Source: Escherichia phage EI-SP-GF
Strand: one strand, 5' to 3'
Sequence record: OR992645.1
DNA length: 64,000 nucleotides
Shown piece after piece: positions 4,713 to 57,180 of the stretch (its first letter is position 1; each line of letters opens with the position of its first letter). The position numbers and the translations under genes are program-made. The notes beneath the pieces were generated by a model. It did no database searches, was not told the origin of the DNA, and saw nothing but the letters and a program-made list of their open reading frames with translations.

Positions 4713-4759
4713 GCCCTAAATTGTTCGGGAAATATTTAAGTTTTACTTTGGAGAAATAA

Positions 4760-21187: not shown

Positions 21188-24100
21188 ATGGCTGATATTA
21201 AAGTTGTCAGAATTGAATCTCTTCCTGCCACTACCGCAGTGACAGAGGATGATTACCTGGTTGTTCAACAACCAGACCTGACCCGTCGTGTAAAAATTGG
21301 CGATGTTGTCCATGTGGATGGGACTGTTTCTCATGTAATCTCCTTTAAGGAAGGTGGTAAGTTAAACGGCCCAATGGATTTTGCCTACTTCGAAGAGGAA
21401 GATCTATACCTGCGTTGGAAAGGCGAATTTCCACACACTGTCCCTGCACTGTCTTCACCATATTCTGACGGTGGTATTACTGACGCTGCGTGGATGGTAT
21501 ATACAGATCCGTCCTTAAGGGAGGAGCTGGAGTCTACCATTGGCGCATCTATGATCATGACAGCCGAAGGGCAGTCTGTCCAAGATGTAATGGATGTTAC
21601 TGTTCAGACAGCCAACGATGCTAAAGCACTTGCACAGCGGGTAGATTTTGGCACAGTGCATACTGTAGGCGATGTTATTCACCTTGTCAACTTTGTTGGT
21701 CCTGCAGTTATTGAAGAGGGAAGAACTACTAACTACCCTTCTGAAGCGGCGGGTGAAAAATTTCTGAACGGTGTGGTATCTCGTCGTGATACTACAACTG
21801 TTGATGGCATTTTCCGTGGCGCTACCTCCGGAGCCATGTATACCATTGCAGTAACCAACGGTGTAGCAACAACAAAAAGAATAGCACTTCGTGACGAATT
21901 TAAACGCCTGGAGGCAAACAACCCAACAAGAACAGTTATCCGTGCCGGAGATGATTTAAACACAGCAGGGTACTTGCAGCTTGATGCAACAGGCCGTTGG
22001 GGTATGTGGAACCAACAAACAGCTTCGTGGCAACCTCTTGCTATAGAGCAAGGCGGCACAGGGGCCAGAGATGCCGCAGGTGCACGCATTAATTTAGGGG
22101 CTTTCTATAAGCAACGTGCAGCCCTTGAGTCAAATTTTAATATCAATAACTTGACTGGTAATCAGGATGGTATATACTACCAGCCGATGACTGCTTATGC
22201 AACTGAGGCAAATGGTTACCCTGCAGGTTCTGGTGCTGGTCACTTGATTGTCTGGCAGAACAATGCTAACGGCGGTACAGGTTGTCGTCAGGAATACTAT
22301 CCATTCTCTAACGTAGATGTTTGGTATTTGAGAACCTATCAGGCCAACACAAATCAGTGGACTGCATGGCAGCCAATGGTCAGACCCCGTAACGATGAGA
22401 CCTTTAGATCGCACATCGGTCTTGGGTCTAGGAATTCTCCTACCTTCGGGCACCTTTACCTGTCTCAAAGCTCGGCTGATGTTAAGTCGGCATCAGGTAT
22501 TGTTAACGGGGACAAATACAGCGCTGACGGTGTCCTTGAGCATGGGTATAGGATCTACTCTGAGGTAAGAAACGACAATAAGGCTTGGTTGACAATCCAC
22601 CTGCACAAAGGCGCAAAAGGATCTGAAACTCATAGATATTTAGGCTTCCGCGAGGATGGGGTCTTAGATTGTCCTAAATATATGCAGGTTGGTGATCTGA
22701 ACGGTCAGCTGGCAAACTGGGGACTTGGAGAATGGATCCGCAGTTCAGGAGCAGAAAGAGGTTTCTGGGGATCTAAGAAAGCCGCCAAGATGGTTATCTG
22801 GGATGGCGGTATGGACGAGCAAGGTGAAGGAACGCTTGAGTGGGGTGTTTATAACAACCGGAAAGCCAAATGGGAACCACTACCGATAGCTTGTGGTGGT
22901 ACCAGTGCCAGGACTGTAGGGGATGCTCAAGCACAATTCAGAATCCCTCTGGCATCAGGCGCTAGACCATATGTAAACCTGCCTAGAACTGCAGCTATGC
23001 AGGACGGTAAGTATTATCCTATTATCGTCAGAACTGACCCCAACTTTGCAGCAACTATCGGGACAGATTTAACCATTGTCACCAGATCTTCTTCTGGCGG
23101 CGACCCAATGAACTGTGCTACACTACAGTGTCACTACAGAACTGGTGGCTGGACAGACAGAGGTGATTCTTTCCAAGGGGTTATTAATTTCTACCAAAAC
23201 GAGAGAGCAATCCTCGGATGTGTATCTCCAACCAGAGGTAAGCAGGAGTATGTTGCATTCTATGTAGAGGCACGTGCATTCCCTGTTACAGTATATGCTG
23301 GCGCTACTGTAATAGAAGTGTCAACCAGGGAGGCTGATTGGCAAGTAGGCAACGTGACAGGTAACCAAGATGGTGTCAAGTTCTGTGCTCCTCTGGAATC
23401 TGCAGATTTGAGTCTTGCAATCAAAGGTGATGATGTAACAAACACCAGACCTCTGGTTGAGTTCAAAGGAACATCAGGTTTCTACACTGGTGGTGGAACT
23501 ATGTGGCACTACCTGGGGACTCCTGAACGCTATGCAGTGATGAGCAAAACGAACATGCCTAAAGTCGAGCTGTGGGCAGACGGTCTTGACTATTTGTGCT
23601 ACGGCGGTCCTAGAAAGGCATTATTCTCTAACGCGGGATTCCAGTGTGCATCTGACGGAACAGAGGATCTAACTAACGGCACGTTTACCTCTAAATGTGG
23701 TAATGGTGCTGGCCTTAAAGGCCAAGCAGAGTTCAGGTCTACTCCAGAAGCTGGTCAAGTTATTGTTCGAGATGTTGTGGGAACAGCTCATAGATTCTAC
23801 AACTTCAACAAAGATGGTACTTTCTCAGCCCCAGGTGGTTTTGTATGTCATACTGGTGGAGACTGGAACAACCAGTTCGGGCCTAATAACCCGTCAAAAA
23901 TAATGGCTGGCAACGTCAACGGACCAGAAGGTTCGATGGTTGTTGGTGGGTTGTCTGTGGCGTTTTCTGGAAACTATGCCTTCCAAATGGCTGGTCGCCT
24001 TGATCAGTTATACACCAGATCTATTGAGGGTGGTAACCACAGGGCGTGGAACAAAGTTATTCAGCACCGTGGTCAAGGTCTGGGGACAGAAGACCTTAAT

Positions 24101-25093: not shown

Positions 25094-25684
25094 ATGTTTT
25101 TATGGGAAAGGCCTAGATACCTTCCAGATATTAGATTGGAGCTGCTGGCAGATATTGTTACGTTTAAAAGTCCGTTTACAGGTAAAACGCAAAAAGTGAC
25201 CTATGCCACACCTAACTGGAAAGGCACTTTGACGGTTTCCAATATCAGCGAGTCACAGTTGCTAGAGCTTAAGAGCTTTGTTGATCAGGTGTATAAAGAC
25301 GGGAACATTTTTCTTATTAAAACGTACGGTCACTCAGTAACAGCTAATGAGCCAATCGCCCTTGGGCCTACCGGTAACGACGATTTTTTGAAGACGGTCG
25401 GATGGGAGCCAAACAGAGACATAGCCAGAGCTGGGGATAAAATATCTGTTAACGATGAATTGAAAGTGGTAACAGCTCCAGTGCGCAGCGATGGTGTTGG
25501 GTCTGCTGTTATAAGCATATCTCCAAGACTTAGAAAACCTATTGCCGCAGGGGACACTATGAAGATAATAACTCAATCCCCAAAGGGTAGGTTTCATATC
25601 AGAGATATTTATAAAATTAAGCAAAAAGTCGATGCTATGCAAAAAGGTGATAATATAGTTATCAACTTCTTTGAGGATTTCTAA
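25094..25684 (+). CDS. tail tip assembly protein (lambda gpM / GTA g12 position, tentative)
   Basis: 196-aa ORF with GGAGG RBS, first gene of a four-gene run ending in the lambda J-like protein. Confidence 0.4.
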   Translation: MFLWERPRYLPDIRLELLADIVTFKSPFTGKTQKVTYATPNWKGTLTVSNISESQLLELKSFVDQVYKDGNIFLIKTYGHSVTANEPIALGPTGNDDFLKTVGWEPNRDIARAGDKISVNDELKVVTAPVRSDGVGSAVISISPRLRKPIAAGDTMKIITQSPKGRFHIRDIYKIKQKVDAMQKGDNIVINFFEDF

Positions 25685-25685
25685 G

Positions 25686-26237
25686 ATGATTAGAGCGCCA
25701 TTAGATAATTTATTTCTTGAAAAGCTGGAGCTTGATAGTGTTGAGATCTTAATTGCTGCAAAGCTAGAGCTACCAACAGGGACTGTCAGGGTGTGCTCAG
25801 GAACTGGTGTTGTGGTGATTGAGGGGCAACATTTTATAGGGATAGGTGGATCAGCAACATTGACTGCTGTGTCTGAGAAAGATGCTACCAACTTCGGATC
25901 TGTGGTAGCAACATTGAACGGATTTGATCCCAAGTATGTAGGTGATCTGCTGAAGACAGAGTATTCGGGTTGTCGTGCCACGTTGTATATCACAGCTATG
26001 GAGAATGGTTTACCTGTTACAACCAATGGCTTGTTTGACGGCCTTATAACAGACATGGCTATTCAGACAGGGGAGAATAGTGCTTTGTCCATATCCATAT
26101 CTTCCATCTTCAACAGCTGGTTAAGAGGTTTTCCTTATCGATACACAGAGGAGAGCCATAGCTCAAGAAACGATAATGACAGATTTTTTAAATATGTGGA
26201 TCAGGTGGCAAGCCGCCCGATCATTTGGGAGGTTTAA
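25686..26237 (+). CDS. tail tip protein (lambda gpL / GTA g13 position, tentative)
   Basis: ORF frame opens 25671; ATG 25686 follows upstream stop; position-based call. Confidence 0.4.
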   Translation: MIRAPLDNLFLEKLELDSVEILIAAKLELPTGTVRVCSGTGVVVIEGQHFIGIGGSATLTAVSEKDATNFGSVVATLNGFDPKYVGDLLKTEYSGCRATLYITAMENGLPVTTNGLFDGLITDMAIQTGENSALSISISSIFNSWLRGFPYRYTEESHSSRNDNDRFFKYVDQVASRPIIWEV

Positions 26238-32794: not shown

Positions 32795-34866
32795 TGGCAA
32801 CAGCTGTTTTTAAACCTTACCGTGATTACTCTACAATGGCTGCACGGTTTCATTACCGCACAGTTCAGGATACTGCAGTTCCGGGTAGGGATTATGATCA
32901 TGTTGAGGGCGATGTAACTATCCCGGTTGGGGCAACCAGTATTGAGATCCCTGTAGAAATTGTTGACAAATTGCCAAACAGGTTGCCAAGAAGCTTCTTT
33001 ATGGAGTTTTCATCAAACTCCCAAGGGGTTATGATTGGAACACAAAGAGCGAAATGTACAATAGTTTCAGATGAGAATCTTGACAGAATATCTTGGGATA
33101 CCGTTGAGGAGAGAATGTTTCACCCAAGATACTGGGTTACAACCACACAGCAGACTGAAAGCACCTGTATTGTTGCGGATAATAACTGCTGTATTAACCG
33201 TTTAGTGTCAAGAACATATGGGGGCATGGCTGGGTGCATTTGGGAAACAGTTGACAAGTATGACCATTTCGGCATTGGATTTGATGATCACTACGAGATG
33301 AGAAACACCAAGCTTTGGTTCAGAATGTCAATAACCAATGCCAGCAACTTCTCCACCCCTGAAAAGATGATTATGACTGTAGACCTTGTTGATGGTACAA
33401 TCATCTATGTTCCTTTAGCTCAATATGCTGTCAGCATCTCAGAGGATAAGAATGTTGCAGAAATTCATATTGATTTCGAGGACTGCGTCGGGATGGACCA
33501 GAACAACAACATGATGGGTGTTGATCCTCGGCAGGTGAGAAGGATTCTAATACCACTTATGCCTAAAGATTGGGTAGGTAATAGCACAGACCCGAGAACG
33601 GAAAATGTAGAGTGTGAGTTGCGTCTAGATCTTCTTCAGCCGGACACAGGCTGGAAAATGATGCAACTTAACAATATTCAGGTGAAAGAACACGATGTTG
33701 GGATCTGCACAGCATATGACGATATGTGGAACGTATCCCCTTTAAGGGTGTTGAGCAATATCAAGCGTCTGGGCTATACAGGAACCATAAACCATTATGT
33801 TGGTATGAGCCATTATTATGACTACACATGGTCAGGAACCCAATGGTCTATAAACAAAACAGGAGCTCTAAACGCTGCAGCTTATAAATGGCATGATGAT
33901 TTTATGTACAATGCCAAACGACATGACTTCGACGTTATGCAGTCTGTAAGCTTTGAGCTTTATAGCGATGCCTGTCCGTTGGAATGGACCCAGAGAGACT
34001 GGAACGATAACTATGCTAAAACAGGCTATACGCCTTGTAGTTACCTCCTGTCTCCAACCATTGAAGAGGGCATGAATTTCCTTACTGCAGTATTTAAGAA
34101 TTTTGCATCAGCCGCTATGAGAAACAACCTGCCAGTGATTATGCAGATTGGTGAACCGTGGTGGTGGTTCAATACCGATACTCGTAAGCCTTGTATTTAT
34201 GACTACCCTACAAAGCAGGCGTTTTATGATGAGACTGGTGAATATGCACTAGACATTGGGACTATTGACGATCCTAAAACTGGCGGTGTTTATGACAAGT
34301 ATGTAGCATTTTGTCGTGGTAAGCTTGGCGCTCGTATTGCAGCCATTTCAAAGGCAATAAAAGCACACGCTGCATCGGCTCAGATGACAGCTTTACTGTT
34401 TTTCCCCACTATTATGGAAACCGAGCTTACGCAAAAACTGAACCTTGCTGACCAATATAAAAAGGAAGCAGGTGCTCTTGATTTCTTCTGCACTGAGTGC
34501 TACGATTGGGTGATGCAGGGAGGTATTGAAAAGGCAAAAGAGTCTGTAAACATACCTATCGTTAAGTTAGGTTGGAAACCGTCTGAAATACAATACCTTG
34601 CAGGGTTCGTTCCTAGCAAAGAGCTTGCTCCGGTATATGGCTACGACCCAACCAGGAATTACCAAGAATTTTTATGGAGATGTATTTGCGGAAACATGGC
34701 AACCATAGAGTATAGATACCCTGAGGTAAAACAGTATGTGTGGGCATACCCGCAAGTAATGTCTGACAGCATCACTGTTACCGCCAGAGATTCTACTGTT
34801 CTGCATATGGGGCAGGTTGCTCTGAAAGGGTATGTAGAAGATGTTGTTCCGCCAGACTTCTCATAA
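32794..34866 (+). CDS. tail-associated protein with N-terminal Calx-beta-like domain and large C-terminal domain (possible glycoside hydrolase / TIM-barrel)
   Basis: N-terminus VPGRDYDHVEGDVTIPVGATSIEIPVEIVD resembles Calx-beta motif; C-terminal region Trp-rich (GEPWWWF); enzymatic role is inference. Confidence 0.45.
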   Translation: MATAVFKPYRDYSTMAARFHYRTVQDTAVPGRDYDHVEGDVTIPVGATSIEIPVEIVDKLPNRLPRSFFMEFSSNSQGVMIGTQRAKCTIVSDENLDRISWDTVEERMFHPRYWVTTTQQTESTCIVADNNCCINRLVSRTYGGMAGCIWETVDKYDHFGIGFDDHYEMRNTKLWFRMSITNASNFSTPEKMIMTVDLVDGTIIYVPLAQYAVSISEDKNVAEIHIDFEDCVGMDQNNNMMGVDPRQVRRILIPLMPKDWVGNSTDPRTENVECELRLDLLQPDTGWKMMQLNNIQVKEHDVGICTAYDDMWNVSPLRVLSNIKRLGYTGTINHYVGMSHYYDYTWSGTQWSINKTGALNAAAYKWHDDFMYNAKRHDFDVMQSVSFELYSDACPLEWTQRDWNDNYAKTGYTPCSYLLSPTIEEGMNFLTAVFKNFASAAMRNNLPVIMQIGEPWWWFNTDTRKPCIYDYPTKQAFYDETGEYALDIGTIDDPKTGGVYDKYVAFCRGKLGARIAAISKAIKAHAASAQMTALLFFPTIMETELTQKLNLADQYKKEAGALDFFCTECYDWVMQGGIEKAKESVNIPIVKLGWKPSEIQYLAGFVPSKELAPVYGYDPTRNYQEFLWRCICGNMATIEYRYPEVKQYVWAYPQVMSDSITVTARDSTVLHMGQVALKGYVEDVVPPDFS

Positions 34867-34878
34867 TCAGGAGATAAA

Positions 34879-35919
34879 ATGTCAAAACCTAGTTTTCCAT
34901 TAGAGATTTGGGCAGAGGAGGATCAGGTTCTGCCTAACACCCACAGACAGAACAGGCTACGCCCGATTGATGATTTGTGGAGAAAAGGTTGGGATCTTGG
35001 TCAAAAGCCGTCATGTGAAGAACTTAACTATATTTTCAATATGCTCGGGACTTGGGCAAAATATATTGCTGACGAGCAGATCCCCGCCCAAGAGGGCCGT
35101 TATCTGGTACGTGATAATAACCTGAGCGATCTTCTGAACATTCCTGTCGCCCGTAGAAACCTTGGGATTATTACTAAGGAAGAGGCAGACGCCAGGTATG
35201 TAAAAGTTACAGGAGATACAATGACAGGCCCCTTAGGTTTGCAGCGTATCAACTTTAAAGCTGCCGAGACAGATAAGGCTTGGATAGAGACAACTATTGG
35301 TCCAGATAAGACAACTCTCGACTTTGGGTTAAGTGATAACACTGGGGCGTTTGATGATGGTGGCACATCTACAGTAGATGCGTTTCGTTGGAGATTCCAG
35401 CCAACTCAGCCAGACATTAATCCAGAGTTCACTTTGATGTACCTGAACGCGATCACGGCTAACCGTGCGCTGTTGAAAGTGGTAGGTAATGTTGAAGTTG
35501 TCGATAACATGCGGTGTAACAACCTTACCATCAGCAGCACAGCAACATTCACCAACTGTAATGTGGCTAGTCAGTTGACAGCTGGGTCCGTATATGTTAA
35601 TGGCGGCGCAAGTTGTGACAGTATGGTTGTAAGAAGCCAGCATTGTGTTGTCGGTAACAGAAATGTGGTGCGCTCTGTGAATGGAGTGACGGCTAACGGT
35701 AACGGCGATGTAACGATCACCATCCCGCAGACAGGGGTACAGGATATCAGAATCGGTGCAAGACTTGTTGATGGTGTTTCTGAATCTCCAGTTCGCAACG
35801 GCTACGTTGTCACAGGTTGGCATTTTGGTGATAAAAAAGAGATGCGTGGTTCAACCTACTGGGCAGGACCTTTACAAAAACTTGTAAATGGTCAATGGAT
35901 CACTGTTAATTATGCGTAG
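34879..35919 (+). CDS. tail fibre protein (short fibre, copy 1)
   Basis: 346 aa; TGDTMTGPL fibre motif; paralogous to 36935-37978; followed by Tfa chaperone. Confidence 0.7.
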   Translation: MSKPSFPLEIWAEEDQVLPNTHRQNRLRPIDDLWRKGWDLGQKPSCEELNYIFNMLGTWAKYIADEQIPAQEGRYLVRDNNLSDLLNIPVARRNLGIITKEEADARYVKVTGDTMTGPLGLQRINFKAAETDKAWIETTIGPDKTTLDFGLSDNTGAFDDGGTSTVDAFRWRFQPTQPDINPEFTLMYLNAITANRALLKVVGNVEVVDNMRCNNLTISSTATFTNCNVASQLTAGSVYVNGGASCDSMVVRSQHCVVGNRNVVRSVNGVTANGNGDVTITIPQTGVQDIRIGARLVDGVSESPVRNGYVVTGWHFGDKKEMRGSTYWAGPLQKLVNGQWITVNYA

Positions 35920-35933
35920 ATCGGAGGACTAGC

Positions 35934-36518
35934 ATGAAAATACTTCAAGAGTTTAAACTTTACCAACCGGGATCTGGCGAATACTACACCAACAAGGAGA
36001 CCAAGGAGCTGACTCCTCAGGAGGTTGAGGATTACACAGCATACACTGGATATTTTTTACGTAATGATGATGGCGATTGGTATGTGCAATCACGAACACT
36101 GCGACAAGAAAATCCCGGCTGTATCTTCTTACTTGTTGACGAGAAGGGTATTCTTAAGACATCTACAGAAGAACCTGATGCCTTGTGGCCTGCTCCAGGT
36201 CTTCGTGTGGTTATCGCCAAAAAAGAAGAGGTACCAGAAAACATTATGCTCCACCACGACGCTTTGCGTTTAGTTGGTGATGAATTTGTCACAGACAATG
36301 AATTCTTTGTTCAACAGGCAGAGGGTGTCATAGAGACAGAACTTGCTTGGGCTACTGCTAGAATTGGTGCCTATCAAGACATGATTGACCTTGAATACGA
36401 TCTTACTGATGACCAAAAACGCAACATCAGAGATTTGAAAATGTACAGGGTAAAACTTCTTGAAATAGATACATCTAAAGCCCCTGACATTTTCTTCCCG
36501 GAACGACCTACCCTCTAA
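35934..36518 (+). CDS. tail fibre assembly protein (Tfa / P2 gpG-like chaperone)
   Basis: C-terminal motif QKRNIRDLKMYRVKLLEIDTSKAPDIFFPERP matches the conserved Tfa C-terminal signature (..YR..L..vDts.APdI.WP..P). Confidence 0.75.
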   Translation: MKILQEFKLYQPGSGEYYTNKETKELTPQEVEDYTAYTGYFLRNDDGDWYVQSRTLRQENPGCIFLLVDEKGILKTSTEEPDALWPAPGLRVVIAKKEEVPENIMLHHDALRLVGDEFVTDNEFFVQQAEGVIETELAWATARIGAYQDMIDLEYDLTDDQKRNIRDLKMYRVKLLEIDTSKAPDIFFPERPTL

Positions 36519-36529
36519 GAGGAGGTGTT

Positions 36530-36844
36530 GTGGAGTTGGATTTGGCGGCATTGTACGGTATCTGCATGGGTACCGTTGTCCCGATCTGTGTATGGGCTTT
36601 CAACCAGTGGCACACCAAATGGAAAGGTATTTCCAAGAGGTTGGATGAGCTGGAGAAAGACCTCATTTTAGTGAAAAATAGCATGGTTACAAAAGATAGA
36701 CTTGATTCCATTATCGAGACCCGGTTAAGTAAGCTAGAGGCCGATATTAACGACCTTAAGCAAGATGTCAGGACAGATGTCTCCGGTATCCGAGCTGATG
36801 TACAAAAGATTTTGCACATGCTTGTAGAGCATAGTAAAAGGTAA
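36530..36844 (+). CDS. small membrane protein with N-terminal TM helix and coiled coil (holin/spanin-like candidate)
   Basis: 104 aa, GTG start with AAGAGGAGG RBS; hydrophobic LAALYGICMGTVVPICVWAF then charged coiled-coil. Confidence 0.4.
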   Translation: MELDLAALYGICMGTVVPICVWAFNQWHTKWKGISKRLDELEKDLILVKNSMVTKDRLDSIIETRLSKLEADINDLKQDVRTDVSGIRADVQKILHMLVEHSKR

Positions 36845-36874
36845 ACAAAGGTAAGAACGGTAAGGATGCCGTTC

Positions 36875-36903
36875 TTGCATTTTGTTCTCTAAAGTGTTAA
36901 AAT
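36875..36903 (+). promoter_or_regulatory. sigma70-like promoter TTGCAT-N17-TAAAAT with TGn, overlapping a weak upstream hairpin (36855-36874)
   Basis: ttgcat 36875-36880, 17-nt spacer ending tgt, taaaat 36898-36903. Confidence 0.45.
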
Positions 36904-36934
36904 AGTCCTTAAGGAATTTTCTCAGGAGAATGTG

Positions 36935-37978
36935 ATGACTAAACCAGTTATCCCTCTCGATATTTGGGCCAATCAGGATGTTGTGCTTGAAAATACAGGA
37001 GAGTTGAACAAGTCTCAACCGAACAAAGAAGAGAGATTGAAAGGTTGGGATATGACACAAAGGATAGCATGTGAAGTTGTTAACTTTGAACTCCACATGC
37101 TCTCTGCGTGGCTAAAGCATTTAACAGAAGATGTTGTCCCTGGATGGGATAATAGATTCTTAAGGGTCACTAATAATCTGGCAGACGTTCCAGACAAAGC
37201 TGCTGCACGTAAAGTCCTCAATGTATACTCGCCTGAAGAAATGGATGACCTGTATGTTGACAAGACTGGGGACACAATGACCCAGACTCAAACTTTGGGT
37301 CTTCAAAGAATCGAGTTTGCATCCGCGTCAACAGACAATGCAGCGATATACACCACCATAACTCCAGACAAAACGATGATGGATTTCTGGATTATGGACA
37401 ACATCGGCGGCGCTGACGGCACAGACCTTGATGATCCTTCTCACCAAATAGACGGTTTCCGTTGGAGATTTCAACCTTCTGGTGGGCAGCCTGTGTTTTC
37501 GGCTATGAAGCTTAATGCTATAACTGCCAACCGTGCAAGACTGGCTATCCAAGGGAATCTTGAATGCAATGATGCAAAAAGCTCCTCTGCAAATGCTAAT
37601 GCGGTAACGATACCAAGAGCCACTGTTAATGGACAACAATCCTGCGGCAGCGCTCAAATAGGTGGAAGAGTGGATTGTAACGATAACACCGCCAGGGGTC
37701 AATATGCAACAGTTGGTGGGAGAAACGTGGTCCGCAGGGTAAATGGTAGTAGCGCAGATAGCAGTGGTAACCTTACTATTCCTATGCCTAGTAGGGGTGT
37801 TGAAGATGTAAGGATAGCAAACCGTTTCAGAACCACCTACAGAGAATCAAGAGTATACCCTGGGCATGTAATGTGCTCCGGCAATTACGCCTATAAACAC
37901 CCGTATCAAGGCGACTATTGGACTGGTGCCATTCAAAAATTTGTAAACGGTCAATGGATCACTATATCTTATGCTTAA
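36935..37978 (+). CDS. tail fibre protein (short fibre, copy 2, paralog of 34879-35919)
   Basis: N-terminus PLDIWANQDVVLEN / KTGDTMTQTQTLGLQRIEF and C-terminus ...FVNGQWITISYA align with copy 1 (...LVNGQWITVNYA); ATG 36935 preferred over GTG 36932. Confidence 0.7.
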   Translation: MTKPVIPLDIWANQDVVLENTGELNKSQPNKEERLKGWDMTQRIACEVVNFELHMLSAWLKHLTEDVVPGWDNRFLRVTNNLADVPDKAAARKVLNVYSPEEMDDLYVDKTGDTMTQTQTLGLQRIEFASASTDNAAIYTTITPDKTMMDFWIMDNIGGADGTDLDDPSHQIDGFRWRFQPSGGQPVFSAMKLNAITANRARLAIQGNLECNDAKSSSANANAVTIPRATVNGQQSCGSAQIGGRVDCNDNTARGQYATVGGRNVVRRVNGSSADSSGNLTIPMPSRGVEDVRIANRFRTTYRESRVYPGHVMCSGNYAYKHPYQGDYWTGAIQKFVNGQWITISYA

Positions 37979-37987
37979 AGAGGGTAA

Positions 37988-38254
37988 ATGAAATTAACTC
38001 AGTTTTTATGGGGGTTGGTTGCGGCATCGGATGACCCTACGAAAGTGTCCCAATCTAAGCTATGGTCAAACATAGGCATGGCAGTGATGACTGGGGTGTT
38101 TATTCATATGGGGTACAATGATACGCTTCCTGAATGGTATGCGTGGATATACGCACCTTCAGTAGCCTGCCCCCAGCTTATTAGCAAATTCATCTCGCTC
38201 CGGTGGGGTTGCCAGCACCCTGACCACGTTAAAAACGAAGAGCAAAAAGCTTAA
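37988..38254 (+). CDS. small hydrophobic membrane protein (possible holin-like)
   Basis: 88 aa with at least two hydrophobic segments (FLWGLVAAS; NIGMAVMTGVFIHMGY; WYAWIYAPSVA). Confidence 0.4.
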   Translation: MKLTQFLWGLVAASDDPTKVSQSKLWSNIGMAVMTGVFIHMGYNDTLPEWYAWIYAPSVACPQLISKFISLRWGCQHPDHVKNEEQKA

Positions 38255-38263
38255 GGAGAAATC

Positions 38264-40009
38264 ATGGCGCAAGACATGACAAGCTTCGAGCAGGCGGTAG
38301 ATCAAGTAATTGTTGATTCTGAACGTTTGCACTTGGTTGTCAACGGTAACGCTGTGGATGAAGTTGTCGTAGAGGATGGGACCACTATCCCTACGGTACG
38401 AAAAGCCATGCTTGACAACCTTTATTTTAAAACGCCACCGATCCCTTGGGCGTATGGTGCATCCACAACAGTTTTTAACCAGCTGTATGAGTTTAAAGGA
38501 GATACAGGCCCTCAGTGGTGGTACGCTCCAGCAGCGTCAAAATCTAACCCGGTTAGGATGCCAGCAGATCCTTCACAATCTCCGAACTGGAGATTATACA
38601 CCGACTCTGCAGTAATGGCAAAATACTACGCAAAACTTAACAGCCCAAGGTTCGAAGGTGACCCGAGAGTACCTACACCTCCAATGGATGATAAGTCCGA
38701 GTCTATAGCAAACACAGAGTTTGTTGTTGACTATGTGGATAGCATATTTAAAGCCATGGAGGGGATGAAAGTTACTGTAGGATCTTTGGTGGTAAAAGGT
38801 CTTACAGAACTTGCTAACACTATAGTTGGGGGTACCCTTACCTTACACGGACCTGTTAATGGAGCAGATTCTACTGCACGCTTCAGGAACCTAATCCTTA
38901 CGGCAAATACTTCTACACTGACTTTTGCGTGGAGCGATCCTAAGCATGCAGACTGGAGAAGCACAGAGCTGCAACCTCATGAAGTATCAACTCACAGAGT
39001 TATAGCTGACACTATAACTTCTGGGAAACCAGTGGCTAATAACAACGATGTGCATTTTGATGGTCTAGGTAATAACTTTTTTGACTACGTGTACATTCGC
39101 GGTAATGCCATGAAGGCAGCCACCGAACCGACATTGCAGGTTGATGGGACCACCAGGGTTAAGAACCTTGAGGTGACAGGCACCGTTACAGGGATAACCT
39201 ACTCTGTAGATGGCACCATGATCTACCCTAGCTATATTGAAAGCACGGGAGATGCACTGATCAATGGAGATTTAGAGGTTGGCGGATCTATAGTCATTCG
39301 TGGCACAGCATCTGTCCAGAACATATCTTTAAATACTCTGAGGGTGAATGAGCGTGCCACTTTTGAAGGAGAAGGGCTTACAGCCAACAAAGGTGTAATT
39401 ACCGAGCTGACAACCACCACTTTAACTGCAACAACTGCAAACTCTGAAAACTGCAACGTTACCAGAAACTTGCAGGTAAATGGAGATGTTAGTTTAAACG
39501 CAGCAGGGACTGGCACCACCTACCTTCACAACCTTGAAATATCAGGTACAGTGACTGGGTGGCTGCCAGACTTCTCTAATGTCAACTTTGTCTGTAATGG
39601 CATTAACTCCAGTGGCAAGATAACCACCTCTCAAGAAATTGAAGCTGGTAAAACTATTACTGCCCCTGCTTTCCATGCAGGGAAGGTGGAGTTTGACTTA
39701 GAGGAGGCTGACGCATCTAGTGGGACATGGACACCTAACGGGCAGGCCAATATGTATGTTGTCCACGCGAAAGGGGACTTTACAATAGGGCAATGGCCTG
39801 GAACATCGGCTGAAGATAAACCTTACCCGTTCACTGCAATCATCTATGTCATTCAGGATGCTGTAGGCCACAACGTGACTTTACACGATAAATATGCCAT
39901 ACTGTCGGCTACTCCTGTTATTAACAACAAAGCCAACAGTGTCACCTTGCTACAATTGACATATTGTGGTGTTGGTGATATTGTGGATGTGGTTATTGCA
40001 CAACGTTAA
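38264..40009 (+). CDS. tail fibre protein with beta-helix-like repeats
   Basis: 581 aa; N-terminus MAQDMTSFEQAVDQVIVDSERLHLVVNG typical of fibre N-termini; repetitive T/G/N-rich beta-strand segments. Confidence 0.6.
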   Translation: MAQDMTSFEQAVDQVIVDSERLHLVVNGNAVDEVVVEDGTTIPTVRKAMLDNLYFKTPPIPWAYGASTTVFNQLYEFKGDTGPQWWYAPAASKSNPVRMPADPSQSPNWRLYTDSAVMAKYYAKLNSPRFEGDPRVPTPPMDDKSESIANTEFVVDYVDSIFKAMEGMKVTVGSLVVKGLTELANTIVGGTLTLHGPVNGADSTARFRNLILTANTSTLTFAWSDPKHADWRSTELQPHEVSTHRVIADTITSGKPVANNNDVHFDGLGNNFFDYVYIRGNAMKAATEPTLQVDGTTRVKNLEVTGTVTGITYSVDGTMIYPSYIESTGDALINGDLEVGGSIVIRGTASVQNISLNTLRVNERATFEGEGLTANKGVITELTTTTLTATTANSENCNVTRNLQVNGDVSLNAAGTGTTYLHNLEISGTVTGWLPDFSNVNFVCNGINSSGKITTSQEIEAGKTITAPAFHAGKVEFDLEEADASSGTWTPNGQANMYVVHAKGDFTIGQWPGTSAEDKPYPFTAIIYVIQDAVGHNVTLHDKYAILSATPVINNKANSVTLLQLTYCGVGDIVDVVIAQR

Positions 40010-40018
40010 TATATCTGA

Positions 40019-40043
40019 CCGCTCCTGACGGGGCGGTTTTCTT
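40019..40043 (+). terminator. rho-independent terminator
   Basis: ccgctcc-tgac-ggggcgg followed by ttttctt. Confidence 0.65.
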
Positions 40044-40057
40044 ATCTGGAGAACACA

Positions 40058-40834
40058 ATGCTTCCAATCCCTTTGCTAAAACTTGGTCGTCATTTCCTCG
40101 ATAAGAGGGGTGGAGTTAAGGAACTTGCTGTTCTGTCATACCCAATAGACAACAGTGACGGTACAAGCACTACAGTAGCCTATGTAAATAGCTTAGCTAT
40201 ACTTTTTGACGATGGTCAGCTTAATATTACTGGCTATAACAAGTTCGGGGAGTGTCGCACTGGGGATCGTAACCCTATAAACTACCCGAGCGAGACGGCC
40301 TGGAATGTTGATCATGTGTGGAGAGCAGACCGTGCGTTTGTGATCCGGACTTTTGATAACCAGTTTTTCTACATCGGCTGCACTGCAGGTCTTATCGGAT
40401 CCACTGCGGCAGGTGGTAACGATGTTTGCGTAAACGAGTGGACACCTCTTCCGGAACAGATTGTTAAAGGATTGCACCTTGACACCCACCCAGAGCGCCT
40501 TATTGAGGTAATGGGAGGTATTAACAACACTGTCTGGGTTATTGCAGAGGCAGAAGGTACTGGCATACTGAACCTGTATGGGTCTGGTAACAACACCTAC
40601 GGATCTTTACATGTAGATAAAAACCAGCATGCAACTCCTGTAAAGATTGGTGAAACATCAGAAAATCCTGAAACAGGCCCTTGGAAAAACCCAAGTATCA
40701 ACTGCGAGGTGCATGACAACTCTGTTATTTTCGGTGGGCCTAGAGGTTTTTGGATTGCTGGATACGACTTTCTGAGAAACAACAGTAGAAACGACCTTGT
40801 TTGGCCCCTGCTCAGATTACTCGCAACGATTTGA
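40058..40834 (+). CDS. RCC1-like beta-propeller repeat protein (possible N-terminal part of the following giant protein)
   Basis: 258 aa with GxNxxGxLG-like repeats (YGSGNNTYGSLHVD); ORF ends inside the start region of the 1626-aa ORF in another frame. Confidence 0.5.
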   Translation: MLPIPLLKLGRHFLDKRGGVKELAVLSYPIDNSDGTSTTVAYVNSLAILFDDGQLNITGYNKFGECRTGDRNPINYPSETAWNVDHVWRADRAFVIRTFDNQFFYIGCTAGLIGSTAAGGNDVCVNEWTPLPEQIVKGLHLDTHPERLIEVMGGINNTVWVIAEAEGTGILNLYGSGNNTYGSLHVDKNQHATPVKIGETSENPETGPWKNPSINCEVHDNSVIFGGPRGFWIAGYDFLRNNSRNDLVWPLLRLLATI

Positions 40835-40869
40835 AAGGCATTCCTGCAGATGAGGAGTGGAAAGGATTC

Positions 40870-43800
40870 ATGTGTGGTCCGAACGGGGCGATAATTGCAA
40901 CGCAGAGGATGCACAAGCCTAATGATCAGCAACTTGTTAACGTATTCTACGGGCAAGATGTCTGGGGAGATGATACATGGCGTTCCTTAAATATTACCTA
41001 CACCCATGAAGTAATAATGGCTCGTGGGTACGGAACAAGTGGCATTTTCTTCAATAATGGTACTAAGCAGTATCGCGGATTCTCTCGCAACCTGTGCAAC
41101 GATATTGGAGCACAATCTGCAAACAATAATCCTCGCGCCAATTTTATCCATTATCAAGCTCTTGCTACAGCCAAGTATGTTGAGCAACGACTGCCAGTTA
41201 GCTGGACAGAGAGTGTTTACTTCCAGGGTATTCATAGAGAAGGTTTTTTAGGGACCTTTACCGTTGTTAATGGCAAACTTTGGTGGTCAGGCATCCCAAG
41301 GGGAAGTTTTGCAGGATCTAATAACCTGTTTGGCGGCAGACTTAACAGCCAGGGGTTCACAGAGGTTCCTGAGAATTGGTATAAAAATGTCCCAGTAGAT
41401 AGTTGGGATATTGATGATATTTTTGACGTTAACGGTGTTAGCAGTGTTAGCAATATTTACATCGGTGACACGGTCAAGATGAAATTGAAGCCTCAACCAG
41501 AGGGGGCCACGTTCATTATTGACAAGATTGAACTGGTAAATGCTGCAGGCACGGTTGTTACAGATGCAAATTACCAATTCTCCACCAACTGGAACCACGG
41601 CGGGGCCAACGAGGTTGTTGTTACTCAGTATAACAGAAATGTTAACAGACGCGGTCTGTACTCTGTAAAAATAACCTATCATGACAAGCATGGCACGGGC
41701 AGAACTCACACAACAAGGACTTTGAACTGGAACACTATAGTTCCTGCGTATCCGTCTGATGGTAAATGGCACACTGTAGGCAGAAACAAACAGTTCCATG
41801 TTAACGATACTGTGTACTTTGGGCTTAACGCTGCTCAGCCAGCTCCAGAAAGCGATACAGCGTATATGGTTCGGCTGCACAGGCAAGATGCTGGGTCTGT
41901 TACCTACGATGTGACCCAAGAGATCTACAATCAGAGACGCTCCACGTATGACAATATTGTGAAAACACAAGCCTTGTGGGAGTTCAACCCTAACGGCAAA
42001 GGTGGTAAAATGTTGCAGGTTAACGAGCAAAACGGAACATCGTTAACTGTCCACGAACACCCAGACCCTTGGCCTGACCCTGGTAAACCTAACTCAGGTG
42101 CTCGCACACTGCAAGTTGTCAGTCATGATGTAGGCTATTTTGGGATACGTTGGGAGGCCACAGTAAAATATGCCGATGGGACAACAAACAACATAGGGAT
42201 TACGCTTGGTGGCACTAGTGAGAGTAACTCGCTGAAAATTGCCTACACTCCTAGAGGTATCTCTATTGACAACATGGATATAGTCCGTAACGGTTACGGA
42301 GATGTAAACATCAAAGTTACTCTTGGTGAGCATCTTGGCGGAGAAAGGATCATTATGTATGCCTTTGATCATGACCCTCGAACCAACGGAACTTATGCAA
42401 ATCAGGCCTGGAGTTACCTGATAAGTGCACCTGAGCCGAATACTAAAGAATTCTACTACGGTATGAAGCGAGATGTGTGCAAGAAAACAGGAACACACGA
42501 CTGGATTGCTATCTGTGTTAAAGATGAGAGAACAGCTTGGGATGAGCCTGTTAACCGCTGGTTCATAGGTATTCCCACCAGAAGTGATAAATACGTTGAA
42601 GAATATATTGTATGTATGGGCGGCACCAACCTCAACATGTGTTGGAACGAGGACGCAAACAAATATTCTGATTATGACTATATGAGGGACTACTCTTGTA
42701 ATCAATGGTTCAACCAATCCGGGTATGCTAATAGACAGTCAAGGGTAAACCCTGCAATCTTCACAGATACGCAGGTTTTCTTGACAAAACAGGCCAACGA
42801 GGTTCAGACCTTCAAGAACAACTATGATCCTAACAAGTGGTTCTACAACTGTTCCGGAGCAATATTCTGGGGGCCTGGTGAACTGCCTGATAGTGGTTCT
42901 TGCTTCGAGGCTGCAACCTATGGCAGTGACTATATTATGGGGCAGGTCAAGAAGTACAAGATGATTCCAGGACCTGAAACTTTAGGTAATGCTGTTGACC
43001 CGTACATAAATTTCGCAGCTATACATGCTAATATGGATGGAGAGAGATATCCGTTTGTTGTTCCGTTAACTTGGGGGTACAAACGTGTCGTGATGATTAT
43101 TAAATGCGATCTGATCGGGAAGCAAGTTCTTGCAGAAAATGGAACATCCACACACCCTTTTGAAGTTGCTCTGCACTACCAGTTTGCAGACTCACCATAT
43201 GCAGGGGATAAAAGAATATCCGACACAGACTCTAAGCGCTGTAAGAAAGTTTTACTTGGAGCCGGGTGGTGGTGGTACGAGTTTGATTTGACAGATAAGT
43301 TCACAGATGATACCAAAACTCTCACAGGTATCCGTCTGGACCTTGGTGAGAACATGCATAAAAGTGTTTGTGATGGTACCTACGGTGACCCTACGGTATA
43401 TCTAAAGTATGTTTCTCTTGAGCATCGCGAAGAGGATGTTTACGGTCCAAAACTGAGATTGTTTGGCGCATGGATTGCCAAAGACAGAGTAGGTATGGGT
43501 AAGAAGGTGAGAGGCTTCTTGATAGATGTAGGGACAGAGGACATGCTGGTTAATGCAGTATGGCCTGAATTACCCGGAACTCAGTGGAACAACTCTGCCA
43601 AATCTATAAACTGGTACAATATTCACAGAGCTATGTGGACCACTAACTGCTACTTGTGGAGAGAGCTTAACGATCAGGCCTTTGGCTTTAGTAACGGCAG
43701 AAGGATGGCGATCATTTGCTGGACAACATTGCAAAGATGTTATGACCATGACTATGAGATTGGTGGTAGGGCATGGAAAGATATCAGGGACAGAGTTATA

Positions 43801-45681
43801 TACAATTTTGCAGACGATAATGGTGGCGGGGCATATAACTTTGGCACAAGCCGACTTATCCATTTGAACGGATCCTCAGCCTACAAGAAAGAGGGTTACT
43901 CTGGGTCTATGATTGAGTGGGGTCTGGTGAAAGATGCTCGCGTATTGATGGGTCAACAACTTGCTGCTGCAATAGGACCTAGCGCAGTGCAGTCGGTTAA
44001 ACCAGCGTGGTTCGATATCCCAATATGGTCATCTGGAACACCAGGAACTGCGGCAATTAACCCTACCACCGGAGATTTGGAAATCTCTTGGGAGGACTTA
44101 AAGCAGGTCGGTGGCTGGGATAAGACTGGGTACCAGGTGCAATGGTGGAGATCTGACGGATCGTTAGCGGCTGATGAGTTTGTTAAGGACAATTTCTACA
44201 CCATGTCCTCTGCAAAAGCACAACAATTGTTTGGTCAGGCCACCCCGTCAACGATCACTATGTCCATGTGCTGTAAAGACAACAGGACGGGAGCTCTGGG
44301 ACCAAGGGTTGCTAAAGTTTTCTCAGGTATTAAATGGAATCTCCCTGTTCAAAGTGTTTCATGGAAGCAAATAGGTGATAACAAGCTGCTGGTTACTCCT
44401 GCCTGTCAGTTCAACGCAACTCTTAACGTTGATCCTGCTGTTGCGGCAAACTCAGCTAAAGCTTCTGACTTCTCTGTGTCTAACACTGCTATGGCAGATG
44501 TGAGGAAGATTGACACACTGAACGCCAGAATTACCTGTAAAAACACTTATGGCACATTCCAGATCATCAACAACTTCACAGATGCTGATTCTAAGGTAGT
44601 AAGGACAGCAAGCCAGACTATGCAGTTGGGCACTCTGGCATACTCTGCCCTGATCACTGAACAATCTCCTACTCTTCAGGGTGGGGGTGTTGGTAAGTTG
44701 ATCACAACACCTGTGTGGAAGCCAAATGAGTGGGTTGTGTTTGATTTGACTGTAGACTTCTCCAGTGACAATAACTGGACATGGGTAAGGAATTGCTTGC
44801 CACAGTTGATGGGCGGTCCAAATTCCGTTAGTGATAGCCACGACTCTACCGATCCGAGCGTGTTCCAGGTGGGGAAAACTCACCCAGAGACTGGGGAAAC
44901 GTTGCCTGACAGGAAGTATGCTTTAGTTTGCATCTCCAACGGCAAGGCAGATATAACCTTCTCGGGGATACACTCGTATAACGGCACTTACAACTTCTCT
45001 AAAAAGTACAGCCTCAAGGCAGGTAACATTATAGACGAAGTTGGTCCGTTATATAACCCAGGTAACGGTATTGGGATTGTAACTGGTATTCTTCCTATGC
45101 AGGAGCCTTCTATAACCCCAGCCAACGTGCCTGGTATCAGAAAAACTTGGGAAAGTAGCAATACCAATATTGCAACAGTGGATGCTACCACAGGACTGGT
45201 AACATTTAAGGCTACCGGGAATGTCACCATAAGGTTTGTAGTTACAGATGATGCAGGCCGCAAAACGTCTTCAACATCGTTTACTGTCAAACAGATGGCA
45301 CCTCAGTGGTTTATTTGGGAAGGAAATCCTCTTGACGGGGCTTACCCTAGACCTGCAGGAACGTCTAATATGAGGGTCTTTACCGGTCCAGTCATGGACA
45401 ATCCAACCACAACCACCAACCCTGCATTTTTTGGTGCTTACATACCTGAAATTATTGGCCTACCAAGGAACCAAATACAATTGCTTTTCGGGGCAGGCGT
45501 TGATGGTCTAGCCACTTTCGGGTACAGTGACAACATTGATGCAGCCAGAAGCTCGGGTTGGATTGGATTTAAGTTCCAGTGGAACCCTGGTGGTAGAACA
45601 TTAGGTCTTGCAAGTGTAGGTGTTATGCTGCCTGGCAACCAGCAATACCATCTCGAAGCTTATACAAACTTCCCTAGTTAA
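40870..45681 (+). CDS. giant virion-associated protein with propeller-like repeats and C-terminal Ig-like (BIG2-like) domain
   Basis: frame open from 40789; track start is TTG 40801 without RBS, first ATG 40870; BIG2-like segment NVPGIRKTWESSNTNIATVDATTGLVTFKATGNVTIRFVVTDDAGRKT near C-terminus. Confidence 0.6.
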   Translation: MCGPNGAIIATQRMHKPNDQQLVNVFYGQDVWGDDTWRSLNITYTHEVIMARGYGTSGIFFNNGTKQYRGFSRNLCNDIGAQSANNNPRANFIHYQALATAKYVEQRLPVSWTESVYFQGIHREGFLGTFTVVNGKLWWSGIPRGSFAGSNNLFGGRLNSQGFTEVPENWYKNVPVDSWDIDDIFDVNGVSSVSNIYIGDTVKMKLKPQPEGATFIIDKIELVNAAGTVVTDANYQFSTNWNHGGANEVVVTQYNRNVNRRGLYSVKITYHDKHGTGRTHTTRTLNWNTIVPAYPSDGKWHTVGRNKQFHVNDTVYFGLNAAQPAPESDTAYMVRLHRQDAGSVTYDVTQEIYNQRRSTYDNIVKTQALWEFNPNGKGGKMLQVNEQNGTSLTVHEHPDPWPDPGKPNSGARTLQVVSHDVGYFGIRWEATVKYADGTTNNIGITLGGTSESNSLKIAYTPRGISIDNMDIVRNGYGDVNIKVTLGEHLGGERIIMYAFDHDPRTNGTYANQAWSYLISAPEPNTKEFYYGMKRDVCKKTGTHDWIAICVKDERTAWDEPVNRWFIGIPTRSDKYVEEYIVCMGGTNLNMCWNEDANKYSDYDYMRDYSCNQWFNQSGYANRQSRVNPAIFTDTQVFLTKQANEVQTFKNNYDPNKWFYNCSGAIFWGPGELPDSGSCFEAATYGSDYIMGQVKKYKMIPGPETLGNAVDPYINFAAIHANMDGERYPFVVPLTWGYKRVVMIIKCDLIGKQVLAENGTSTHPFEVALHYQFADSPYAGDKRISDTDSKRCKKVLLGAGWWWYEFDLTDKFTDDTKTLTGIRLDLGENMHKSVCDGTYGDPTVYLKYVSLEHREEDVYGPKLRLFGAWIAKDRVGMGKKVRGFLIDVGTEDMLVNAVWPELPGTQWNNSAKSINWYNIHRAMWTTNCYLWRELNDQAFGFSNGRRMAIICWTTLQRCYDHDYEIGGRAWKDIRDRVIYNFADDNGGGAYNFGTSRLIHLNGSSAYKKEGYSGSMIEWGLVKDARVLMGQQLAAAIGPSAVQSVKPAWFDIPIWSSGTPGTAAINPTTGDLEISWEDLKQVGGWDKTGYQVQWWRSDGSLAADEFVKDNFYTMSSAKAQQLFGQATPSTITMSMCCKDNRTGALGPRVAKVFSGIKWNLPVQSVSWKQIGDNKLLVTPACQFNATLNVDPAVAANSAKASDFSVSNTAMADVRKIDTLNARITCKNTYGTFQIINNFTDADSKVVRTASQTMQLGTLAYSALITEQSPTLQGGGVGKLITTPVWKPNEWVVFDLTVDFSSDNNWTWVRNCLPQLMGGPNSVSDSHDSTDPSVFQVGKTHPETGETLPDRKYALVCISNGKADITFSGIHSYNGTYNFSKKYSLKAGNIIDEVGPLYNPGNGIGIVTGILPMQEPSITPANVPGIRKTWESSNTNIATVDATTGLVTFKATGNVTIRFVVTDDAGRKTSSTSFTVKQMAPQWFIWEGNPLDGAYPRPAGTSNMRVFTGPVMDNPTTTTNPAFFGAYIPEIIGLPRNQIQLLFGAGVDGLATFGYSDNIDAARSSGWIGFKFQWNPGGRTLGLASVGVMLPGNQQYHLEAYTNFPS

Positions 45682-56679: not shown

Positions 56680-57180
56680 GTGAAAATTAAAATCTTTGCT
56701 ATTATTTTGAGCGCATTTTTATCGCTGCCTGTTGTTGCAGCACCAAAACAAAAAGTATATCACACTTGCAAGCCGTCGGATACTAAGGAAAACATTCTAG
56801 CATGCAATATCTACAGGGAGGCTAGAGGGGATGGCACGATGGGTATGCTGGCATCCGGATTTGCCACACTAAACAGGAAATCCCACCCCAAATACCCAGA
56901 CACTATAAGAAAGATTGTCTACCAACCTAACCAGTTTTCGTGGACAAACCACGGCAAAACTTTTAAGGTGACAGAAAAAGATTCATGGGATCACGCTAAA
57001 AGTCTTGCAAAGATGCTTCTAAAGGTCTATAATAACAACCATGTTGCATACATGGCTATGGATATAACAGGTGGAGCAACACACTACCATACAACAAAAG
57101 TACGACCGAAATGGGCAAAAAAGATGCAGAGGACAGCTCAATTCGGGAGTCATATCTACTACAAGGAGCGCAATAAATGA
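56680..57180 (+). CDS. endolysin, SleB-like cell wall hydrolase (Hydrolase_2) with N-terminal signal peptide
   Basis: GTG 56680 with GGAG RBS (upstream part of track ORF contains terminator hairpin); signal-like MKIKIFAIILSAFLSLPVVAAP; CNIYREARGDG...NQFSW motifs of SleB-type hydrolases. Confidence 0.65.
   Translation: MKIKIFAIILSAFLSLPVVAAPKQKVYHTCKPSDTKENILACNIYREARGDGTMGMLASGFATLNRKSHPKYPDTIRKIVYQPNQFSWTNHGKTFKVTEKDSWDHAKSLAKMLLKVYNNNHVAYMAMDITGGATHYHTTKVRPKWAKKMQRTAQFGSHIYYKERNK

Follow-up and report, generated by a model that had tools for sequence, protein, structure and literature searches.

Two small proteins in the tail-fibre operon of an rV5-like Escherichia phage as a candidate holin and its membrane-tethered partner

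A candidate lysis pair among the fibre genes

Escherichia phage EI-SP-GF (sequence record OR992645.1) encodes two small proteins, here designated orfA and orfB, among the tail-fibre genes of the 64,000-nucleotide stretch that was analysed (the window). The two are read from their sequences as a holin-plus-accessory lysis pair, with a probability of about 0.5: orfB would most likely be the holin of this rV5-like phage, and orfA would most likely be a membrane-tethered accessory of orfB, whether releasin-, XhlA-, or antiholin-like. This reading is adopted because the families co-occur both in the lysis cassettes of Mu-like phages and in the late fibre operon of rV5-like phages, which are otherwise without an assigned holin, and a function in lysis seems the most economical way to account for that co-occurrence. 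What is supported directly is that the proteins belong to these families, that synteny holds in both phage types, that the virion proteome of phage CB7 lacks their counterparts, and that a late promoter is predicted; membrane topology, hole formation, the partnership of orfA with orfB, and any tie to a SleB-like hydrolase are what we infer.

A preliminary description of this DNA had noted two small hydrophobic proteins among the tail-fibre genes and had proposed that they were dispersed holin or spanin components, or else unrelated membrane proteins such as superinfection-exclusion factors. Both open reading frames (ORFs) are present exactly where it placed them (Table 1). The term hydrophobic suits orfA, which has a clear N-terminal helix, but is generous for the weakly hydrophobic orfB. 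Comparative genomics favours the dispersed-holin option for orfB, by way of the occurrence of its family, PHROG 1322, in Mu-like cassettes, whereas orfA looks like an accessory instead.

In the proposed mechanism, orfB would be a late-expressed inner-membrane protein folded as a two-helix hairpin with both termini in the cytoplasm (N-in/C-in), which would accumulate in the cytoplasmic membrane and open it at a set time. A soluble lambda-R-type lysozyme, encoded outside the window, would then reach the wall through the opened membrane, and spanins encoded beside the large terminase gene (TerL) would subsequently break the outer membrane. orfA, held by an N-terminal transmembrane domain (TMD) and carrying a helical coiled-coil domain that is predicted to lie on the cytoplasmic side, could tune the timing of the holin or help to release a membrane-targeted SleB-like hydrolase; the link to the hydrolase is speculation. 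In the rV5 lineage, the pair would have left the vicinity of the genes for endolysin and spanins and now lies in the late operon for the tail fibres.

The orfB family in Mu-like lysis cassettes

orfB matches PHROG 1322 ('membrane protein') with E 2.7e-32 over profile positions 1-87 of 87. A member of the same family (E 4.8e-20) is encoded on L056, a GC-rich Mu-like contig from IMG/VR that also carries GemA, Mu Gp27 TerS, and TerL, and there the gene order is M15 endolysin, PHROG 1322 member—overlapping the endolysin stop codon—then Rz-like spanin, a TMD-plus-coiled-coil protein (145 aa, PHROG 462), a Mu gp26 homologue, and TerS. The cassette of endolysin, orfB-like gene, and Rz-like spanin recurs in the GenBank phages RS138, where ORF26 is the endolysin, ORF27 the membrane protein, and ORF28 Rz, and Bise, and with a spanin likewise in the prophages L062 and L063 of Azonexus and Accumulibacter metagenome-assembled genomes. 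It lies directly after the Mor/C late activator in RS138, Bise, L056, L062, and L063, with no gene between activator and endolysin. A pattern scan of genome contigs for the cassette, in which the search pattern was strict, returned three loci only.

A second scan of IMG/VR, with the Mu-like orfB members as queries, yielded 53 loci. The gene directly upstream of the orfB-like gene is labelled an endolysin by BLAST in 29 of the 53, nine more loci were confirmed with Pfam (Peptidase_M15_3, CHAP, GH108+PG_binding_3, Amidase_2, or M15_4 upstream), and about seven further loci are near-identical to confirmed ones, giving a total of roughly 45 of 53. These upstream endolysins belong to at least seven families, including the M15_4, M15_3, Amidase_2, GH108, CHAP, lambda-R, Mu gp22, and RS138 types. 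A hydrophobic N-terminus or TMD was found in none of the 30 BLAST-labelled endolysins scanned, and therefore a genuine holin is needed in these phages. Across the whole genome of Bise, the late lysis transcript encodes three membrane proteins and no others: the orfB-like protein, the spanin-like protein, and the TMD-coil protein. On the minus strand of Bise, at 23024-23314 between the tail-chaperone and tape-measure genes, a further protein of 96 aa has two TMDs, both strongly hydrophobic; this insertion is moron-like, and its product is another membrane-protein candidate of that phage.

The rV5-type and Mu-type orfB proteins can be aligned collinearly over their full lengths, S21, K24, W26, and F38 are invariant across both, and reciprocal tblastn connects the two types at E 1e-3 in 2.3 Gb; judged by these sequence relationships, they are one family. 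A further PHROG 1322 member (E 6.6e-14) is located at 20-253 of L057, an IMG/VR contig of an unrelated myovirus, upstream of tail-sheath genes, and this appears to be a third genomic context for the family.

orfB resembles the class II holins and pinholins, such as S68 of phage 21, in that these are proteins of 70-90 aa with two helices and a predicted N-in/C-in topology; the first helix rich in Gly, Ala, Ser, Thr, and Met and the hydrophilic C-terminal tail of orfB are further class II traits. It differs from them in having no sequence relation to these proteins and a tail that is not basic, and searches of orfB against Pfam and NCBIfam gave no match, including none to a Pfam holin family. 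One orfB relative carries the source label 'DUF2644', which a Pfam search did not reproduce. Unlike pinholins, the Mu-like members of the orfB family are paired with soluble endolysins rather than signal-arrest-release (SAR) endolysins, which implies large holes.

orfA and the tethered coiled coils of the gp25 position

Phage Mu itself is without a holin; its gp25 'releasin', a membrane-tethered cytoplasmic DUF2730 protein with N-out/C-in topology, is needed to release the Mu SAR endolysin, and late expression is typical of confirmed holins (Chamblee et al. 2022, PMC9239132). The gp25 gene lies in the late lysis region, and orfB-family genes co-occur there with DUF2730 or with analogous tethered coils: at least 28 of the 53 orfB-containing cassettes have a gene for a membrane-tethered coiled-coil protein at the gp25 position. 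Three variants occupy it, namely a true DUF2730 protein in one locus, L085 (E 1.1e-14), an N-terminal-TMD coiled-coil family in 13 loci (seen in Bise, L056, and L063), and a coil with a C-terminal TMD, XhlA-like in architecture, in 14 loci (the RS138 type).

The N-terminal hydrophobic helix of orfA is clear, spanning residues about 3-24 (Kyte-Doolittle (KD) value 1.9), and the AlphaFold2 (AF2) model is confident (predicted local distance difference test (pLDDT) 87.6), with two long helices at residues 5-50 and 55-103 forming a helical hairpin. An acidic MELD precedes the TMD and HTKWKGISKR follows it, a pattern of acidic N-flank and basic junction also found in the orfA relatives of PVP-SE1, CB7, Aeromonas phages, and phi92. 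By the positive-inside rule alone, the topology is predicted to be N-out/C-in. orfA thus shares size, acidic N-flank, basic junction, and helical domain with the N-terminal-TMD coil family of the Mu-like phages, and it is like gp25 itself in having about 100 aa, an N-terminal TMD predicted N-out/C-in, basic residues at the junction, and a helical cytoplasmic domain. It is unlike gp25 in that its gene follows the fibre chaperone gene and in that orfA gave no match to DUF2730 (PF10805) at E <= 1 and five relatives none at E <= 10, whereas the same profile recognised Mu gp25 (E 2.5e-13) and the L085 protein. DUF2730 has so far been reported in transposable phages only.

Pfam and NCBIfam searches with orfA gave nothing above threshold and coiled-coil noise only. 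Among these, the match to XhlA (PF10779; E 0.014) is below threshold and driven by the coiled coil. The pair is comparable with XhlA/XhlB of PBSX in B. subtilis, in which a holin likewise has a small single-TMD coiled-coil partner, although the TMD of orfA is N-terminal, unlike that of XhlA. An exhaustive HMMER search with an orfA profile found 13 proteins only and no bridge to the Mu-like families, word-indexed homologue searches found close relatives only, Foldseek searches of the orfA model against BFVD and PDB gave no match below E 0.5, and profile searches against PDB sequences returned coiled-coil or P450 noise only. Profile-profile comparison with hhalign gave Prob 47% (E 2e-4, 78 columns) between the orfA family and the Mu-like TMD-coil family, Prob 77% (E 2e-5) between the orfA family and that of phi92 gp149, and 2% between the orfA family and Mu gp25 alone, and PHROG cross-hits agree with a likeness of orfA to the Mu-like TMD-coil type. 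orfA is best described, on these comparisons, as an architectural and possibly remote relative of the gp25-position proteins, rather than a demonstrated family member.

The combination of a TMD with a coiled coil is also that of a periplasm-spanning i-spanin, as the preliminary description had allowed, and phi92 gp149 weakly matches PHROG 739 'Rz-like spanin' (E 9e-4). However, a conserved spanin pair is already known beside TerL, no lipobox ORF is embedded in or adjoins orfA, the acidic N-flank and basic C-flank are the opposite of i-spanin topology, and hhalign of the orfA and Mu-like TMD-coil families against five i-spanin controls gave 3% or less. A spanin function for orfA is, on these grounds, extremely improbable and was rejected.

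Synteny in large myophages

By tblastn, relatives of orfB are present in 373 phage records and relatives of orfA in 223, from phages of Escherichia, Klebsiella, Salmonella, Cronobacter, Pectobacterium, Erwinia, Aeromonas, and Pseudomonas, and both genes are kept across phages with different fibres. In the rV5 relatives, orfA always lies directly after the fibre chaperone gene, and the orfA-like gene of phi92 and Pseudomonas phage PsgM04F follows the chaperone gene as elsewhere. PVP-SE1 (gp45-44-43-42), CB7 (CB7_32-33-34-35), and Aeromonas phage 2L372X share the order chaperone, orfA-like, 4-TMD protein, orfB-like, followed by a fibre gene. orfB was found together with orfA in a baseplate/fibre module in 39 of 42 IMG/VR loci, and in one of the IMG/VR loci (L047) the two genes are adjacent and overlapping.

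PVP-SE1, CB7, and most of the IMG/VR loci have the gene for the 4-TMD protein (PHROG 7451) between their orfA-like and orfB-like genes. This gene was sought in the window and is absent; a terminator-like hairpin, a sequence like the rV5 promoter P030, and the gene for STF2, the second of two paralogous short-tail-fibre (STF) proteins, fill the slot. STF2 thus occupies the place where Seunavirus, Certrevirus, and Plateaulakevirus carry the 4-TMD protein. In phage 2L372X (NC_048770), an unannotated ORF of about 150 aa with multiple TMDs, at 4480-4975 between genes 075 (orfA-like) and 074 (orfB-like), is likely to be a missed call of the 4-TMD gene.

Mass spectrometry of CB7 virions detected all of the neighbouring products CB7_24-31, 36, and 37. 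The chaperone and the three membrane proteins (orfA-like, 4-TMD, and orfB-like) were not detected in the same virions, and the latter three are therefore probably non-virion proteins.

The placement of the pair has a counterpart in T4, where holin gene t ends a late block of fibre and chaperone genes (g37-g38-t), far from endolysin gene e and the spanin genes pseT.2 and pseT.3; the dispersed lysis genes of rV5 were compared with those of T4 by the authors of the rV5 genome (PMC3606486). The two arrangements differ in several respects. T4 t directly follows g38, whereas orfB is separated from the chaperone gene by orfA and STF2. T is a protein of 218 aa with a large periplasmic domain, whereas the candidate hole-former here is the two-helix orfB. 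orfA was considered as a homologue of the T4-type holin T and rejected, as the orfA family has no similarity to T in sequence (hhalign Prob 0.14%). Pairwise comparison revealed no similarity between T4 gp38 and the chaperone (Tfa) of the window, and T4 gp38 is without a Pfam match; the parallel with T4 is therefore positional only.

Points against the lysis reading and its alternatives

Several observations weigh against the lysis reading. orfB is weakly hydrophobic: no 19-residue KD window rises above 1.2, a moderate segment lies at residues 25-41, and a second, weaker one, interrupted by Pro and Lys, at 50-71, although the second helix of the Mu-like homologues is more hydrophobic than the first. 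Sequences of lambda S105, S21-68, and T4 Imm served only as a rough yardstick for this crude scale. The AF2 model of orfB is poor (pLDDT 58) and unsuitable for structure search, and the hydrophilic C-terminal tail is variable and acidic or mixed, whereas holin tails are typically basic. TMHMM and Phobius gave the rV5 authors no TMD for rV5 gp29, the orfB of that phage; the annotators of PVP-SE1 recorded one TMD in its homologue. The rV5 authors proposed gp129, encoded in the 82-163 transcription unit, as the holin (PMC3606486), and gp129 of rV5 and LL12 is the more classically holin-like protein: it is 78 aa long, contains two strong TMDs, and ends in a charged C-terminus. As for orfA, it is not a detectable DUF2730 member, and its link to the Mu-like TMD-coil family stands at an hhalign probability that coiled coils are apt to inflate. 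The two-TMD ORF on the opposite strand of Bise provides that phage with another candidate. The orfB-like gene of phi92 and PsgM04F overlaps the beginning of the Baseplate_J wedge gene, and the fact that the genes have stayed in the baseplate/fibre module in distant genera could mean a morphogenetic role. Finally, the slot after the endolysin gene, in which the orfB family is found, is held in P2 by the antiholin-like LysA, and the orfB family could be a regulator in that slot.

The morphogenetic role would make orfA and orfB, together with the 4-TMD protein in relatives, non-virion membrane assembly factors for baseplate or fibre attachment that act alongside Tfa. It would explain the location in the baseplate/fibre module, the constant position of orfA behind Tfa, and the overlap with the Baseplate_J gene, and absence from CB7 virions is a property of Tfa as well. 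Some database records also label orfA 'tail fiber protein' and the phi92-like orfB 'structural protein', but the 'structural' labels derive from BLAST transfer and not from data. The presence of the orfB family in Mu-like lysis cassettes, far from tail genes, argues against assembly factors, and we know of no membrane step in fibre assembly. The morphogenetic explanation is accordingly regarded as a minority possibility, doubtful and yet deserving of attention.

If the orfB family acted instead as an antiholin or set the timing of lysis, the role of true holin would fall to another protein, gp129 of rV5 being an example. The position of the orfB-like gene after, and not before, the endolysin gene is consistent with this, since the cassette position between endolysin K and spanin lysB is that of LysA in P2; so are the weak hydrophobicity and non-basic tail of orfB, and gp129 has the two strong TMDs and charged C-terminus already described. 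In P2, LysA is a larger, multi-TMD timing factor, and a separate holin, Y, is encoded upstream of K; by contrast, no gene precedes that of the endolysin in the Mu-like cassettes. Apart from the spanin-like and tethered coiled-coil proteins, Bise and RS138 offer no candidate other than the orfB-like protein between Mor and the terminase genes, and the transcription unit of gp129 is apart from the late structural genes. A purely regulatory orfB is thus considered unlikely.

Superinfection exclusion, the remaining option of the preliminary description, would mean that the two proteins act as T4 Imm and Sp, T5 Llp, or Cor do, preventing incoming related phages from using the receptor or getting their DNA in. 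Precedents exist for such genes next to those for receptor binding, as T5 llp is beside pb5 and cor is near fibre genes, and PHROG 1322 is filed in the PHROG category 'moron/host takeover'. Against this, PADLOC returned no defence match and coiled-coil noise only, the genes belong to a late operon behind a predicted late promoter, they are kept across hosts and fibre repertoires, and the Mu-like context is a lysis cassette. With no positive evidence found in its favour, exclusion is very unlikely.

Lysis inventory and the SleB-like hydrolase

The preliminary description contrasted the two small proteins with 'the endolysin', encoded about 19 kb away and without an adjacent holin-like gene. The enzyme in question is a wall hydrolase of the Hydrolase_2/SleB-like type (PF07486) and does have a signal peptide, a Sec-type signal (MKIKIFAIILSAFLSLPVVAA) that is strongly hydrophobic, is preceded by K2 and K4, and—unlike the Mu endolysin—has no obvious SAR domain. 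It is not the canonical lysozyme, which is a soluble protein (rV5 Gp89, PF00959; LL12 gp90) encoded outside the window. The contrast in distance was consequently drawn from an incomplete lysis inventory. The muralytic gene nearest to orfB is 18 kb away, and the spanins, like the lysozyme, are encoded outside the window, the i-/o-spanin pair adjoining TerL, with its start about 690 nt upstream of position 1 of the window. That no holin-like gene adjoins the hydrolase gene was borne out: the coding strand beside 56680-57180 contains no holin-like ORF, and a check for an overlooked frame gave only an antisense ORF (57056-57280, TTG start) with hydrophobic stretches, which was judged spurious.

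The SleB-like family is widespread, occurring in 1265 phage records, T5-like phages included. The rV5 homologue, gp2, has been described as a 'cell wall hydrolase' and is labelled 'endolysin' in RefSeq; the CB7 homologue is toxic when expressed in E. coli, and that of CR3 has been implicated in lysis (PMC7344957). The protein may possibly be a second muralytic enzyme of the lysis system. Its gene starts about 10 nt past a strong terminator (rV5 t003) and overlaps the start of rIIA (57177-59159) by 4 nt, and this placement of the terminator, with the coupling of a secreted wall hydrolase to rIIA, suggests tightly limited expression.

No holin was identified in the genome papers of LL12 (PMC6658697), Gotham (PMC7471380), or KPP-1 (PMC9862379), nor, apart from a local candidate, in Certrevirus (PMC7344957). 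In BASEL phage Bas51, no holin is annotated in the 45.7 kb that were read, a stretch that includes the endolysin gene. Directly downstream of the canonical endolysin gene of LL12, outside the window, lies the gene for gp91 (68 aa; LL12 22121-22327), an envelope protein in the lysis neighbourhood with a very hydrophobic, signal- or lipobox-like N-terminus (FLLAILFMAACLACG).

Genomic setting

Over 34800-40100, the window shares 99.6% identity with Escherichia phage vB_EcoM-ECP26 and 94-98% with more than 100 genomes of rV5/FV3-like Vequintavirus, and the source phage is, on this sequence identity, an rV5-like Vequintavirus. The window opens within the large terminase gene, its position 1 corresponding to LL12 coordinate 60161, and continues through head, tail, baseplate, and fibre genes into the rIIA region. 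At the locus itself, the gene order is 690-aa fibre, STF1, Caudo_TAP chaperone, orfA, STF2, orfB, and 581-aa fibre (Table 1). orfB lies inside a structural operon, between the predicted late promoter P030, whose sequence in the window (ttgttctctaaagtgttaaaatagtcct) is near-identical to that of rV5 (Table S4, PMC3606486), and terminator t028. Both orfA and orfB are annotated in more than 100 near-identical phages. The long minus-strand ORF at 25334-26056 is an artefact of the ORF picker and is antisense to conserved plus-strand genes.

Table 1. Coordinates of the locus and of the SleB-like hydrolase gene in the window
Feature	Coordinates	Strand	Details
STF1, first short-tail-fibre paralogue	34879-35919		
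Tail-fibre assembly chaperone (Caudo_TAP/Tfa)	35934..36518	+	PF02413 E 1e-11; PHROG 136; upstream of orfA
orfA	36530..36844	+	GTG start; AGGAGG ribosome-binding site; 104 aa; PHROG 5345; rV5 gp31, LL12 gp30
Terminator-like hairpin	36851..36878	+	12-pair stem then ATTTTGTTCT; directly 3′ of orfA
Putative late promoter, rV5 'P030'	36880..36916	+	Motif TGTTAAAATA; would drive STF2, orfB, and fibre gene
STF2, second short-tail-fibre paralogue	36932..37978	+	PHROG 4465
orfB	37988..38254	+	ATG start; 88 aa; PHROG 1322; rV5 gp29, LL12 gp28
Terminator t028 equivalent	40017-40038		End of the STF2, orfB, and fibre gene unit
Sec-signal SleB-like cell-wall hydrolase	56680..57180	+	PF07486 E 2e-19; rV5 gp2

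Downstream of the locus, the Big_2/intimin-like lateral fibre gene, which is one ORF of 1878 aa in rV5 and LL12, is represented by two ORFs, 40058-40834 (258 aa) and 40801-45681 (1626 aa). The split results from a 1-nt deletion relative to LL12 near 40807 (GGCC-CCTG versus GGCCTCCTG); it could stem from a sequencing error, mark a pseudogene, or be a frameshift site. Sixteen GenBank records labelled 'Campylobacter phage' (MG0656xx) are 94-99% identical to E. coli rV5-like phages at the locus, and their host labels look doubtful, through contamination or mis-assignment.

Implications

No paper was found that assigns rV5 gp29 or gp31, or PHROG 1322, to lysis. What is new would be a holin family and a variant of the theme of a holin with a tethered partner in an unusual genomic placement, rather than a new kind of system. 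More tentatively, and with low confidence, orfA and orfB may represent a two-part module, consisting of a new holin family and a releasin-like coil that is not DUF2730, that is common to Mu-like phages and to the rV5, PVP-SE1, phi92, and Plateaulake myophages and that moved into the fibre operon, where it would couple the timing of lysis to fibre and baseplate expression; orfA would, in addition, control the release or activation of the SleB-like hydrolase. If this were true, the concept of the releasin would extend beyond transposable phages.

The Vequintavirinae and Stephanstirmvirinae are among the most often isolated coliphages, and several are described as potentially therapeutic or are contained in commercial products. 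The tie between PHROG 1322 and lysis cassettes provides a concrete candidate for the holin of the rV5 group, and likewise for that of many Mu-like phages whose endolysins are soluble, where the study of the Mu releasin had left a gap. The same tie also points to another family of cytoplasmic, membrane-tethered coiled coils in the releasin position. Annotating these genes correctly is relevant to the engineering of lysis timing and of lysis-deficient therapeutic phages.

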